Source of the DNA: Eledone cirrhosa
Lineage: Eukaryota
Length of the DNA stretch: 64,000 bases
NCBI GenBank assembly: GCA_964016885.1
Contig: OZ024741.1
Location: 216,008,001-216,072,000 of the forward strand
Reading direction: 5' to 3'
In this document: positions 124 to 63,330 of the stretch, piece by piece
How positions within the stretch are numbered: position 1 is the stretch's first letter
Layout of the letters: every line of letters starts with the position of its first letter
Program-made: the position numbers and the translations under genes
Notes under the pieces: generated by a model
Database searches by the model: none
Told to the model about the DNA's origin: nothing
What the model saw: only the letters and a program-made list of their open reading frames with translations

Positions 124-1489
124 ATGAAAATAGGGAGAAAGAGACGATTATGAGGGAGAAACATTTTTTTTCCTTTTGTTGTCTCTCTCTCTTTTTTCGG
201 GGTTAAAAAATTATTAAAACGAAATGTTTTACTTTGTGTGAAGTTTTAAGGTATTAGTTGATTTATTTATTATTTAACAATGGTATTTATTTTTCTATTT
301 ATATATTTAATTATTGTCTATTACCGGTTTCTGCATTTATATGCATTATCAAATGATAGTGAAATGTATTAGTGTGGTGTCGCACATGTTAAACAGAAGG
401 TGCAGAAAGAATAATGTTATATACAAACAAGGTTTAAGAAGTGAAAATAAAAAAGAAAAAGGAAAAAAAACGTGCATAATGTGGAACGTAAAAAGTCAAT
501 GTGGAAGAAAAAATAATGTTAATTACAAGCAAAGTCATTGAAGTTAAGCAGTTCAAAATGTATTAATATAGCAAGAATGCTTAGTTGAACCATGGTTCCG
601 TGAAGGAGGCAAATGGTGGACTGTGGTTTGATATGATTTCCCTTATTAGAGAGTTAATATGCAGGGGTAAGCAATTCTTGCTGGGTGATATTTAATTTAT
701 TTAAGAAAAGGGATTAGGTAGGGAGGTAACTCTTGTAAATGTTTGATGGTTTGTTGCAGTTTTAGATTGGTCTGATTTTTCGTGCATTGAGTAGTGGTTG
801 AAATTTATTAATGAAATGTGTTTCCTTATTGGTACGTTGGATGAAAGTAGCGTTGTCTATGAATTTGTAAATGGGGAAAATTTTAAAGTTTGGGTGTTTT
901 TGAGAGCACAATTGGCGATATGTTCACTAAATGCAATCTTTCTGTATTCCTGTATTTTAATTTGTGATTTATGGACGGTCATACGTTGACGGAGGCTGTT
1001 TTTGTCTGTCCTATGTAGTGCTCTAGACAACCTGAGCAGGTCAAAACATAGATAAGGTTTTCAGATGTATATGTAAAGTTGTGTTTAACTGTGAAAAGTT
1101 GTCCTTGTTTAAAATGGAATGTTGAGCCTTCTATTAGATTTATGCATATGCCACAGTTGGGCCTTCGGCATTCTGTTACTGTAGGGTTTATTGTGAGGGT
1201 TTGTTGGATTTTGGCTTGTGTGAGGATGTTTTTTATGGATTTGGCTTGTCTTTTGCTCTTTATGACGTTGTGTGTTTGGATGTTATTGTTCATTCTTGGG
1301 TCTCTTTTTAGTAAAGGAATGTTCTGGAGGATGGTGTCGAATGCCTCATTGTCTAATACCTTAAAACTTCACACAAAGTAAAATATTTCGTTTTAATTAT
1401 TTTCTAACCCAGAAAAAAGAGAGAGAGACAAAAAAAGGAAAAAAAAGATATTTTCTCCCTCATAATCGTCGCTTTCTCCCTGTTTTCAT
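124..1489. repeat. Inverted repeats of about 135 bp (124-258 / 1353-1489) enclosing the PLE fragment, bounded by (TA)n
   Basis: gaaaatagggagaaag...aagttttaaggtattag is the diverged reverse complement of ctaataccttaaaactt...ctttctccctgttttc. Confidence 0.85.
762..1350 (-). pseudogene. Penelope-like element 3' fragment: Cys linker plus GIY-YIG endonuclease, frameshifted
   Basis: ORF 979-1293 has CRRPNCGIC followed by NLIYVLTCSGCLEHYIGQT. After a frameshift the frame continues to HFINKFQPLLN and a stop at about 762. The Cys linker is typical of Neptune-type PLEs. Confidence 0.85.
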
Positions 1490-1744
1490 ATATATATATA
1501 TATATATATATATATATCCTAACTCGTGTGCCTCCTCTCCGCATTTTATTATATATATATATATATATATATATATATATATATATATATATATATATAT
1601 ATATATATATATATATATATATATATATATATATATATATATATATATATATATGTATATATATATATATATATATATATATATATATATATATATATAT
1701 ATACAGTATAATGTACACACACACACACATACACACACACACAC

Positions 1745-1985
1745 ACGGAGGAGACTGAGGTTAGGTGGACATGCTCACCGACATCCAGAGTTGACACTGC
1801 ACTCAGTGCTCCTGTGGGAGCCCCTGCATGGACATACTGGAAGTGGAAGACCAAGGTTAAAGTATCTAGTTGGCCTAAGAACAGACACTGGTCTGTTGGA
1901 GTCGCAGGACATGGCAGCGATAATGAGGGATAGAGACCGCTGGAGTGAACTCGTCCATGGATCTCGGGAATTTTACCCGCCCTAG
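1745..1985 (+). mobile_element. RTE-clade LINE 3' stub
   Basis: [11 protein letters not shown]...GRPRLKY...[11 protein letters not shown] matches the RTE ORF C-terminal pattern RLRxxGH...GRP...DRxxW. Confidence 0.7.
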
Positions 1986-2044
1986 ATATATATATATATA
2001 TATATATATATATATATATATATATATATATATATATATATATA

Positions 2045-3055
2045 CACTAACAGCAGTACTCAGCGTTGCCTGGGTAGGTAAAATAATATCTGCTTTGATG
2101 AAAAGGTGTTGATCTTAGCGACTGCTTCTCGATAACTCATATATGGCCACACACAGGCCATGCGGGGAAGGGTGGTGATGACCTCTATCACTGAGAAACG
2201 CGGGTGACTGACCAAGGGGCATGCTGGGGGAGGGAGGTAACGACCTCTAACACTAAGCCAAATTTCCTCACGCTACTTGATTGGAAACCGATGAATTCTC
2301 AAATACACAACTAAAAGCTCAGACGACGTCAGTGGCCATCGTTTTGCCTTTGATCATCTATAAGATGTGCAATGATAGGTTCTATCGTAGTATAAAAGTT
2401 GAAACAAATAAATTGATCTATGTGTGAGGTGGAGCCGAAGTTTCGAATTTGAACGAAATCGGTTGAAAAATGTGGAAGCTGGAGCCGAAAAGGCGGAAAT
2501 GTGAGCGAAAAGGTGGTATTTTCGAATATTTAAGCCGCTGCTACGCGGTTCCTGAAAAGAAAGTCCAAAATGTAAAGCCACTTTAAGACGTGAAATAATC
2601 AGATCTAGTGTAGTGTAAAATTTGAACAAAGTAGGTTGATTAATGTGGGACCTAGAGCCGAAAAAGTGGAAATTTGAGTCTAAAAGTGATATTTTTTTAT
2701 ATTTAAGCGGATGCCACGCCATCCCTAAACAGCAAGTGCAAAATATAAAGCGATATCAGGATGTGCAACGATAAATTCTATTTTGCTTTAAAATTTTAAC
2801 GAAATCGGTGGCAAAATGTGGGAGCTAGAGCCAAAAGTTTTATTTTTCGATACTTAAAAAAGGTGACCCCCCCTAACGATGTTTAGCTGCAGAATGAACC
2901 CGGAATGAAAAAAAATGATACGCTGATATATAGAAAACACTCCCCGATGACTAATCTATGAGCCTGTAAAGTTTCATGAAAATCGGTCGTAAGAAGTAGT
3001 GCCCTATAAGTAATACACAGACACACACACATACTTAATTTTATATATATACAGC
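2045..3055 (+). mobile_element. Probable non-autonomous Helitron-like (Lep1/HINE-like) element
   Basis: The 5' end reads actaacagcagtactcagcgttgcctggg. Internal repeated motifs resemble aaatttgaacgaaatcgg. The 3' end has aagtttcatgaaaatcgg...acacagacacacaca...ttttatatat. This is resemblance only; there is no coding sequence. Confidence 0.45.
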
Positions 3056-3659
3056 TATATATATATATATATATATATATATATATATATATATATATAT
3101 ATATATATATATATATATATATATATATATATATATATATATATATATATATATATATATACATCTATATATATATAAAGTTGTAGTTCCTGTCTGTTTG
3201 TTTGTTTCTTTGTTTTTCACGAACTCCTCCTATGGTTTTCGAGATAGACCTCATAACTATATATATTCTGAAACGACATTGCCCGGGGTACATGGATAAT
3301 TATATTTTATTTTAATCAAAGGGTTCCCCGGCGGCACAAACCCTCGCTGAAAATATTTTGCCTTCGATTTATATGAAATGATAAGATCTGATGCCTATTC
3401 ACAAGTTTTGAATTGATATTTTGAAAAAAATTCTTTACAAGAAACAAAATAAGAATAAGATTTAATAATGTAATTTTGATTTGATATATTACAAAAAATA
3501 ATATTTTCCAATGTTTCATGCATTACATTTTACATTGAGTAATATTGAAATGCAGGGGTTTTCTCCATAAATTATATCACTGATTTAAAATCAATCATCT
3601 TTTTCTTACAAGGCGCCTCTAATTCGGCTAAGTATATATATATATATATATATATATAT

Positions 3660-61486: not shown

Positions 61487-61730
61487 TATATATATATATA
61501 TATATATATATATATATATATATATATATATATATATATATATATATATATATATATATTTATATATATATATATTAGGTATTAGGATTGGTGCTCTAAA
61601 ATGAATGTATGTATAGTATATTTGGCAATATACTGTATGTTTAATTAAAAACATTTAGAAGACCATACGCTATCGGATTTAAAGTAGTGACTATGTCACT
61701 TACTTATTTTCGGCAAAAGAAGGGAGAAAA

Positions 61731-61769
61731 GCTAACAGTCTGTTTCACGCTGTTGGCGATCATCAGAGC
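61731..61769 (-). ncRNA. Hammerhead ribozyme inside a module with 300-bp-spaced direct repeats (61579, 61879)
   Basis: Minus strand: gct-CTGATGA-t-cgc/caaca/gcg-t-GAAAcag/a/ctgtT-agc. Confidence 0.8.
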
Positions 61770-62182
61770 AACGCTCTCCCCGTTTTCGCCGAAAATTATA
61801 GAAGACGGATTCTCATATAATTCCAGTAATAATCAGGAGCTGATTATACAGAGCGATTGCTGGTCTAACAAAAATTAAGTATTAGGATTGGTGCTCTGAA
61901 ATAGAGATGTGTACATGAATATATATGTATATATATACATATATATATTCATATATATATGTGTGTGTGTGTAAGAATGCACACCTACACACATATATAT
62001 ATACACATTATATATATATAGATACACACACACACATATATATATATATATATACATATGTACGTATGGGTTATATTGAACATGTTATGCTCGATATAAC
62101 CCATACGTACATATGTATATATATATGTGTGTGTGTGTGTGTGTATGTATATATATATATATATATATATATATATATATAT

Positions 62183-62357
62183 AATTCCATCCCGCCCGTC
62201 CCCTTAATCTATTTTATTTCTCATGCTTTCTTCTGATGACGGACTAGCGTCCGAAACGTTAAGACCCTCTTCCTGCTATATCAAGTGTTAACCTAATATA
62301 CACCTTCCATATACTGTACCGATTGTGTTGTTATTTCTGTTTACCTTTTACATACAT
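62183..62357 (+). mobile_element. HHR-bearing short element of about 175 bp between TA tracts (HHR 62229-62264)
   Basis: tctt-CTGATGA-c-ggac/tagc/gtcc-GAAA-cgtT-aaga. Paralogue of 38046-38225. Confidence 0.85.
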
Positions 62358-62477
62358 CTATATATATATATAAATATATATATATATATATAGTAATAAT
62401 AATAAAATTGAAGACTAAAATCCAAAGAGGGTTCGATAAGGAAAATATATATCAAATATATAAGAACCGAAGAGCAA

Positions 62478-63330
62478 ATATTTATTAAAATAACAGATTA
62501 AAGTTTAAGCAAAGAATCGCTGCTTTCACCCTTAACGGGATCTTCTGAAACTAACAAAGTCAATCTGTAAACGCAGAACTGGATATTTCAAAAAACGTTG
62601 CAACCGGAGGAAGACAGGAAGACGATACTTTGGTTCGTGGTAACGTTCGCTGGCAAAGAACGGGAAAAAACGAATAATACGTCATTAATAGGAGCGGTGA
62701 AAAACAATTACGCGCAAAGACAGAACCACCATTATGGTATAAAAGAGGTCGTAGACTAATGTTCTCTTAGGTGGTGCATAGAGACGTTCTCTGGCAATGA
62801 ACGAAAAAACGAAGATAATAAGTGATATGTGGAGCGTGGAGAACAATAGCAAGCAAAGACAAAACCAGGTAAATGGTATAGCAGAAGTCGTAGACTAAAA
62901 TTCTAACTAGGAGACCAAATGAATCTCCGCTACAGAGTGAAAGCAACGATTCTTTGCTTAAACTTTAATCTGTTATTTTAATAAATATAGTATGTTGAGA
63001 GAGATATAGTGTGCCATCAATAAAACAAGGAAAACCACCAGTGTATGGAATCTATAACCTATGGAAGGCTGGGTAGACACAAAATAATTAAAGATATAAA
63101 TTAAAATGCATATACACACCTCTATAACTATAATATAGGCTATTCTATTTCAGTCAACAACTTCCAGGCGAAACAGATCTCTTTGGATTTGAACGCGTGT
63201 GTTATATATTTATAGAGGTGCATTTTAATTTATATCTTTAATTATTGTGTGTCTACCCAGCCTTCCATAGGTTAGAGTTTCCATGCACTGGTGGTTTTCC
63301 CTGTTTTATTGATGGCACACTATCTCTCTC
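62478..63330. repeat. Two adjacent inverted-repeat structures (62478-62530 / 62937-62989 and 62997-63127 / 63211-63330)
   Basis: Reverse-complement arm pairs are visible. An HHR-like remnant, CAGAAGA-t-ccc/gttaa/ggg-t-GAAA, lies on minus at about 62520-62550. Confidence 0.85.

Follow-up and report, generated by a model that had tools for sequence, protein, structure and literature searches.

Asymmetric hairpins at TA microsatellites in an Eledone cirrhosa contig as probable head-to-head, 5'-truncated insertions of Penelope-like elements

Complex insertions of Penelope-like elements (PLEs) have been described in which an inverted 5'-truncated copy is present, a tail of 30-40 bp stands at one end and (TA)n tracts are the targets (Craig et al. 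2021, PMC8557442), and the same source regards the origin of tandem and inverted PLE structures, and the choice of microsatellites as targets, as open questions. Head-to-head inverted pseudo-long terminal repeats (pLTRs), the usual PLE arrangement, have been reported together with palindromic junctions and self-priming (Arkhipova et al. 2013, PMC3846280). Minimal PLE-type hammerhead ribozymes with U3-A8 are known, and opposite-strand pairs lie 100-700 bp apart in Schistosoma (PMC4209133). For PAc, a Poseidon element of Anolis, both target strands were cut and extended in vitro, and two reverse transcriptase (RT) start sites bounded the tail (Frangieh et al. 2024, PMC11167929). In twin priming of L1 elements both ends of a break prime on the RNA and an inverted 5' piece results (Ostertag and Kazazian 2001, as cited in PMC2246262), while non-LTR retrozymes are described as non-autonomous PLE derivatives (bioRxiv 10.64898/2026.07.22.740005). 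Here we examined a stretch of 64,000 nt (the window) of the Eledone cirrhosa assembly GCA_964016885.1 (contig OZ024741.1, positions 216,008,001 to 216,072,000), which has 37.9% GC, is dense in (TA)n and contains a series of long hairpins. We conclude, with a probability of about 0.8, that several endonuclease-positive (EN+) PLE families gave rise to these hairpins as dead insertions with heavy 5' truncation, in which two 3'-end (pLTR) copies stand head-to-head within (TA)n, most likely as the result of two primings. The anatomy of an inverted truncated copy with a tail and (TA)n is already published (Craig 2021; Arkhipova 2013), and the hairpins are further cases of it, with modest mechanistic clues.

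The original prediction had placed about 13 inverted arm pairs of 50-350 bp in the window. All 13 aligned in pairwise comparison with ends within about 6 nt of the predicted places, with arm lengths of 53-350 bp and arm identities of 88.7-100%; in nine of the 13 the arms diverged by 4-11%. After simple-repeat masking, 19 inverted BLAST pairs of at least 50 bp at a spacing of at most 1.6 kb were found across the window, including three pairs of copies of a repeat resembling a short interspersed nuclear element (SINE) and three from a single tandem locus, and no such pair appeared in any of 20 block-shuffled windows. Inverted pairs at 18.8, 35.6-36.4 and 62.0 kb were excluded as simple repeats, and those at 42.6-45.8 kb as copies of the dispersed SINE-like repeat. 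It was noted that a fourteenth pair at about 45936-46150 had been overlooked; this hairpin (45936-46206) has arms of about 68 bp at 82% identity and a 56-nt tail reaching (TA)n.

A one-sided extension, or tail, was present in 12 of the 13 hairpins. It ended at (TA)n in ten of them, with lengths of 33, 87, 41, 62, 77, 97, 86, 35, 85 and 113 nt in the hairpins at 0.1, 3.7, 4.5, 10.1, 19.2, 46.2, 46.7, 61.1, 62.5 and 63.0 kb, respectively. The 89-nt extension at 53.0 kb ended at (CA)n, and the one at 24.3 kb was interrupted by an L1-type insertion. Tailed and untailed ends were each located at (TA)n in ten of the 13. Unpaired extensions had been predicted at 4.5, 10.1, 19.2 and 61.1 kb, and the asymmetry is thus wider than had been claimed.

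The connection to PLEs through an open reading frame (ORF) was found in two of the 13 hairpins. The first of these (124-1549) comprises a 5'-truncated PLE on the minus strand, running from 1352 to 124 with its untailed end at (TA)n, head-to-head with an inverted arm at 1353-1489 (arms 92% identical), which is followed by (TA)14 and the tail at 1517-1549. Its 1.1-kb spacer with an ORF does not fit the claim that the insertions are minimal. The long arm carries a frameshifted C-terminal endonuclease fragment (979-1352, minus strand) with a CX4CxxC linker and a GIY-YIG domain with two inner cysteines. By translation, and at the level of motifs, this agrees with the Neptune/Nematis-type definition of PMC8557442, a CX2-5CxxC linker before a C-terminal GIY-YIG with two inner cysteines. 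The fragment matched the RT-linked endonuclease at 9038-9385 in an in-window tblastn search (E 4e-12). Pfam searches gave an RVT_1 match in four of ten ORF pieces, with no GIY-YIG match and none of any kind for this fragment, so the clade calls depend on motifs and the in-window tblastn comparison. In a protein-cluster atlas, the clusters resembling the fragment carry GIY-YIG/HTH_animal in a minority of members only, which we treat as a lead. The matching endonuclease belongs to a broken Neptune-type PLE (8110-10042, plus strand) with RT, linker and GIY-YIG, situated between two (TA)n runs immediately to the left of the 10.1-kb hairpin.

The second ORF link concerns the hairpin at 4511-4984, which has 206-bp identical arms. 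It is homologous to the 3' end of a solo truncated PLE at 47371-49656 (minus strand; broken RT and GIY-YIG), with 87% identity over 112 bp and 173/221 over the full end. The solo copy stops at the same TATA word, and its other end has neither a tail nor an inverted arm; the tail of the 4.5-kb hairpin was sought at the far end of this PLE and was not found there. A direct duplication (48897-49158 and 49381-49643, 90%) lies at the 5' end of the solo copy and abuts (TA)n with a TAT overlap.

Hammerhead motifs were searched for with a strict descriptor, which returned 11 matches in the window compared to 0.77 +/- 0.76 in 30 shuffles. Three of the 11 fall inside the listed hairpins. One is a predicted minimal hammerhead at 322-352 (minus strand) in the long arm of the 0.1-kb hairpin, downstream of the ORF fragment, with a U3-A8 core and a palindromic helix III; the others occupy the two arms of the 4.5-kb hairpin (4677-4704, minus; 4832-4859, plus). 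A relaxed scan, which was noisy and had no shuffle control and from which only U3-A8 matches fitting the family were kept, added the hairpins at 24.3 kb (24348-24656; exact core) and 61.1 kb (61061-61487; 189-bp arms, 98.4%; one core change). The hairpin at 10.1 kb (10059-10409; 142-bp arms, 98.6%) aligns to the one at 24.3 kb and on this basis has the same motif, and the U3-A8 motif is common to all three. Partial motifs were present in three more: at 19144-19339 (57-bp arms, 91%) the apex falls within a hammerhead-like stem II, while decayed hammerhead-like motifs were noted at 46618-47057 (167-bp arms, 96%) and 62393-62988 (62-bp arms, and a 388-nt spacer with an internal direct repeat). 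Whole or near-whole predicted cores were thus counted in five of the 13 hairpins and partial ones in three, in agreement with the expectation that several contain a hammerhead, and no convincing motif was found in the remaining five (3.7, 17.2, 46.2, 53.0 and 63.0 kb).

No hammerhead model was among the Rfam matches listed (150 of 206), and a microRNA (miRNA) reading was rejected, as the miRNA-type matches were sub-threshold and caused by the hairpin shape. Minimum-energy folds of seven hammerhead regions gave stem II in five and the full ribozyme fold in none of the seven, an absence that is uninformative because it is expected for dimer-dependent motifs. Similar to the hammerheads of PMC4209133, the predicted motifs have a minimal core, a palindromic helix III and U3-A8 covariation. 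They differ from them in the C at position 4 of the 4.5-kb family, in the decay of several copies and in being predicted motifs only.

Several further hammerhead-bearing inserts were observed in the window. Two solo inserts at different loci (38047-38224 and 62184-62358) share both ends at 175/187 identity and resemble a small non-autonomous unit, and related short inserts occur at 10590-10659, 13097-13179 and 30842-30897. Additional hammerhead-bearing ends at 47071-47326 and 19357-19470 (both minus strand) are stacked in the (TA)n runs of hairpins, which indicates that insertions land in TA tracts again and again.

Both ORF and hammerheads, and the tails as well, are directed outward from the apex, as seen for the ORF and hammerheads in the hairpins at 0.1, 4.5, 10.1, 24.3 and 61.1 kb. 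The two copies are therefore joined at their 5' ends, and the arrangement is head-to-head where the original prediction had called it tail-to-tail. Its proposal of a PLE origin is supported by the two ORF links, the five whole or near-whole hammerheads and the asymmetric ends, with five of the 13 assigned by shape only. The hairpins resemble canonical EN+ PLEs (Penelope/Poseidon, Neptune, Nematis and Hydra, and also Naiad) in the head-to-head inverted copy, the tail at one end, the strong 5' truncation, the microsatellite targets, the palindromic inverted junctions and the C-terminal GIY-YIG with a CX2-5CxxC linker. Unlike the published EN+ insertions, their tails measure 33-113 nt compared to the quoted 30-40 bp, and most units have shrunk to pLTR-only hairpins.

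Long inverted arms and TA flanks would also be expected of miniature inverted-repeat transposable elements (MITEs), or of DNA-transposon foldback elements, that had inserted at TA, and five hairpins lack any PLE mark. However, symmetric terminal inverted repeats were not encountered, the structures being one-sided in 12 of 13 with 33-113 nt of additional sequence before the microsatellite. Within one family, copies take the form of solo ends, of tail-only joins and of ends with an ORF, and 83-89% of the reads of the 4.5-kb family in two read sets continue into unlike sequence, with no fixed unit. The arms themselves contain hammerheads and a GIY-YIG ORF. Any target site duplication would be masked by the (TA)n context. 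We regard a DNA-transposon origin as very improbable, and for eight of the 13 it is already largely refuted, in keeping with the earlier view that these are not MITEs.

We then considered the junctions of the PLE-derived hairpins. The sequence at the untailed end overlaps the adjoining TA run by 3, 4, 4, 0, 3, 4, 4, 4 and 6 nt in the nine hairpins that abut a pure TA run, with a null mean near 1; the 0.1-kb hairpin was left out for its internal (TA)14, and those at 53.0, 62.5 and 63.0 kb for having no TA run there. An overlap of at least 3 nt was found in eight of the nine, a count that none of 200,000 simulations reached (summed length, P = 1.7e-4). The zero-overlap case is the 17.2-kb hairpin, whose true untailed end at 17927 overlaps by 5 nt. 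At the distal, tailed end the overlap was 0-2 nt where continuation of the template is visible (the tandem junction at 3.7 kb and the left end at 17.2 kb). These ends agree with PAc in the AT-rich target and in two start sites delimiting the tail. They differ from PAc, where initiation is reported as non-homologous to the target, in that their overlap with (TA)n is 3-6 nt at the proximal end and 0-2 nt at the two visible distal ends. Neither the overlap at the untailed end nor a fixed apex distance was encountered in the available parts of PMC8557442 and PMC3846280.

The apices also recur in position. The hammerhead core lies 39, 38 and 39 nt after the apex at 10.1, 24.3 and 61.1 kb, respectively, and 53 nt after it at 4.5 kb, and the two solo inserts begin 49 nt before their cores. 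Three of the eight apices examined carry a duplication of 10-17 nt (17 nt at 4.5 kb, 10 nt at 46.7 kb and 11 nt at 61.1 kb), which looks as if it came from abortive snap-back and re-priming.

Four structures (0.1, 16.5, 17.2 and 24.3 kb) have sequence in the untailed arm that is absent from the tailed one. The insert at 16534-16675, related to the 46.7-kb family, joins a tail-only arm (16534-16586) head-to-head to an untailed arm (16584-16675); since the arms do not overlap, it forms no hairpin. The 17202-17557 pair aligns as predicted but is part of a larger permuted structure with a true span of 17202-17927, in which two outward-reading arms are out of phase with each other on a circularly permuted or tandem unit and each has sequence that the other lacks. 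The 24.3-kb hairpin shares the untailed end and apex of its relative at 10.1 kb, and about 35 nt close to the apex are missing from its tailed arm. The original prediction had invoked template switching. One cDNA alone, however, cannot give these four structures, and either two primings or later deletion is needed.

We infer the two primings, the pairing of the primer and the nature of a fixed stop from these features. A PLE protein would cleave the TA repeat on both strands, and a cDNA would be primed from each of the 3' ends thus freed. The first cDNA would begin at the distal RT start site and so carry the tail, while the second, begun at a TATA-like word that lies 33-113 nt inward and is able to pair with the target, would lack it. 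Synthesis of both would end prematurely, in many cases at a fixed point some 40-55 nt ahead of the hammerhead; this point is probably a strong stop or the 5' terminus of the RNA. Short microhomology would then join the two cDNA ends, at times once an abortive snap-back had been re-primed, with host repair completing the fill-in. This model is favoured by the additional sequence in the four untailed arms, by the extension of both strands in vitro and by the solo copy at 47371, which ends at the proximal TATA site without a tailed partner, indicating that this site can be a primary 3' end. The 16.5-kb insert has the geometry of L1 twin priming, from which the hairpins differ in element class and in that the two cDNAs usually cover the same stretch and yield a palindrome.

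A single cDNA of the same PLE origin could produce much of this anatomy, if a tail-primed cDNA snapped back on a palindrome of 2-4 nt and was copied, whether by a host repair polymerase or by RT, up to the annealing of a TATA word with the other (TA)n end, with asymmetry arising from later microhomology deletion in the unstable palindrome. Near-perfect apices at 10.1, 19.2, 4.5, 46.7 and 61.1 kb, three of them with the duplications described above, are consistent with this route, as is the TAT overlap with which the solo copy meets (TA)n on its 5' side (49656). The arms of the 4.5-kb hairpin agree at bases that are rare in the family, which points to one source for both, and self-priming has been proposed for palindromic inverted junctions (PMC3846280). 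However, four separate later deletions would be required (0.1, 16.5, 17.2 and 24.3 kb), and both the solo copy at 47371 without a tailed partner and the two-site extension of both strands in PMC11167929 speak for two primings. Across nine pairs the arms differ by 18 transitions and 20 transversions, which does not separate one template from two. We consider snap-back of a single cDNA a serious contender, though short of an even chance and only slightly stronger once a PLE origin is granted; on that condition we lean only somewhat toward two primings.

A stronger form of the two-priming model would make twin priming obligate here, with a distal start that is unpaired with the target and yields the tail, a proximal start at which the cut (TA)n end pairs with an RNA TATA word, and both cDNAs running off a short pLTR transcript whose 5' end would lie about 40-55 nt before the hammerhead. 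We hold this form tentatively, as rather less than an even bet. If true, one model would account for the tail, the inversion and the microsatellite targeting, and such genomes would be factories of perfect hairpins of 100-400 bp. A search by title and abstract, with supplements and most subscription papers outside its scope, found no report of PLE twin priming or of these junction details, which is weak evidence.

Public sequencing reads were compared with a query from the 4.5-kb hairpin (4501-4830) in four runs, both read sets coming from a single study. Organism A contained the family in abundance (1830 and 1759 reads, and 701 contigs), while organism B yielded only three weak pieces. In the two samples, 111 and 119 reads show the tail end directly at (TA)n, and three contigs show this for the untailed end. 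Each read set also contained opposite-strand joints with one side at 4714/4715; examples had 43 and 81 reads, or 21 and 16, with 1-3 start places. The joints vary, with six among those listed and 124 further loose ends. The base at 4609 of the hairpin differs in 239/243 and 350/361 plus-strand family reads. About 500 reads per run matched only the hammerhead stretch (4677-4715) and then continued into mixed sequence (agreement 0.34), which suggests that the motif is common to many families.

Several observations weigh against the reading of the hairpins as head-to-head PLE copies made by two primings. The apex bin of the 4.5-kb hairpin (4765-4775) had zero depth in all four runs, and most family reads are 90-99% alike, not identical, to it. 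The main subfamily, and with it most family reads, leaves the reference at 4715, so the position of the joints is partly set by alignment, and the opposite-strand joints may be library fold-back chimeras. All four of the youngest hairpins, with arms at least 98% identical, are compatible with a single snap-back, whereas greater age (arms 91-93%) is seen in those listed hairpins for which two cDNAs are required, and later deletion would give the same result. Initiation by the anole PLE is reported as non-homologous to the target (PMC11167929), unlike the TA overlap inferred here. For most arms the link to full-length PLEs is putative. Five of the 13 hairpins have neither a PLE ORF nor a convincing hammerhead and are assigned by shape. 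These include the pair at 3659-4483, which aligns as predicted (arms 99.7%) but is built of a 204-nt tandem unit, with 2.3 units on the tailed side and 1.7 inverted units on the other; the 17.2-kb structure; and the hairpins at 46219-46534 (53-bp arms, 89%, 113-nt spacer), 52901-53164 (79-bp arms, 94%, opposite end not at (TA)n) and 62998-63444 (135-bp arms, 89%, opposite end at a short (GA)n).

The missing apex coverage, together with the 99.7-100% arm identity at 3.7 and 4.5 kb, would also be expected of assembly or long-read chimera artefacts. Yet the arms of nine pairs differ by 4-11%, two separate loci (10.1 and 24.3 kb) have the same end and apex, and family ends and strand-switch joints are present in short reads of two samples; we judge an artefact to be at the bottom of the range of probabilities.

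It was also considered that the hairpins are self-propagating non-autonomous units, retrozyme- or SINE-like, copied whole by PLE proteins and not made anew at each insertion. The shared untailed end and apex at 10.1 and 24.3 kb, and the shared ends of the solo inserts at 38047 and 62184, would fit such units, as would the derivation of the 3.7- and 17.2-kb hairpins from short tandem or permuted units like non-LTR retrozymes. These two hairpins do resemble retrozymes in their short PLE-tied units (the 204-nt unit and the permuted unit, respectively), while a type I hammerhead per tandem unit, a retrozyme trait, was found in neither by strict or relaxed scan, the relaxed scan at 17.2 kb covering 17200-17620. 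Moreover, the apex details at 10.1 and 24.3 kb differ, the 46.7-kb family has quite different junctions at 16.5 and 46.7 kb, and the joints of the 4.5-kb family are variable. Whole-unit copying therefore appears unlikely to us, and head-to-head PLE insertion remains the preferred reading.

Both junctions are exposed in these very short copies, so that counting young ones genome-wide could tell twin priming from snap-back. Annotation can easily mistake hairpins of this kind for MITEs or, given the sub-threshold Rfam matches, for miRNA precursors, and they may trouble assembly.

Besides several PLE ORFs, the window contains broken ORFs of L1-type, CR1/L2-type and Gypsy-type elements, class names that are in part tentative. 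Its set of repeats appears similar to that of an octopod cephalopod. L1/Tx1-type copies were located at 24652-28178 (minus), 54956-57845 (plus) and 41654-42305; the two longest are 86% alike, and one interrupts the tail of the 24.3-kb hairpin. Broken remnants at 31626-34031 (plus) are presumably Gypsy-type gag, protease and integrase. The dispersed SINE-like repeat occurs in many copies on both strands, at 11598-12048, 39750-39814, 42523-42838, 44380-44520, 45159-45788, 53187-53387 and 58622-58844.

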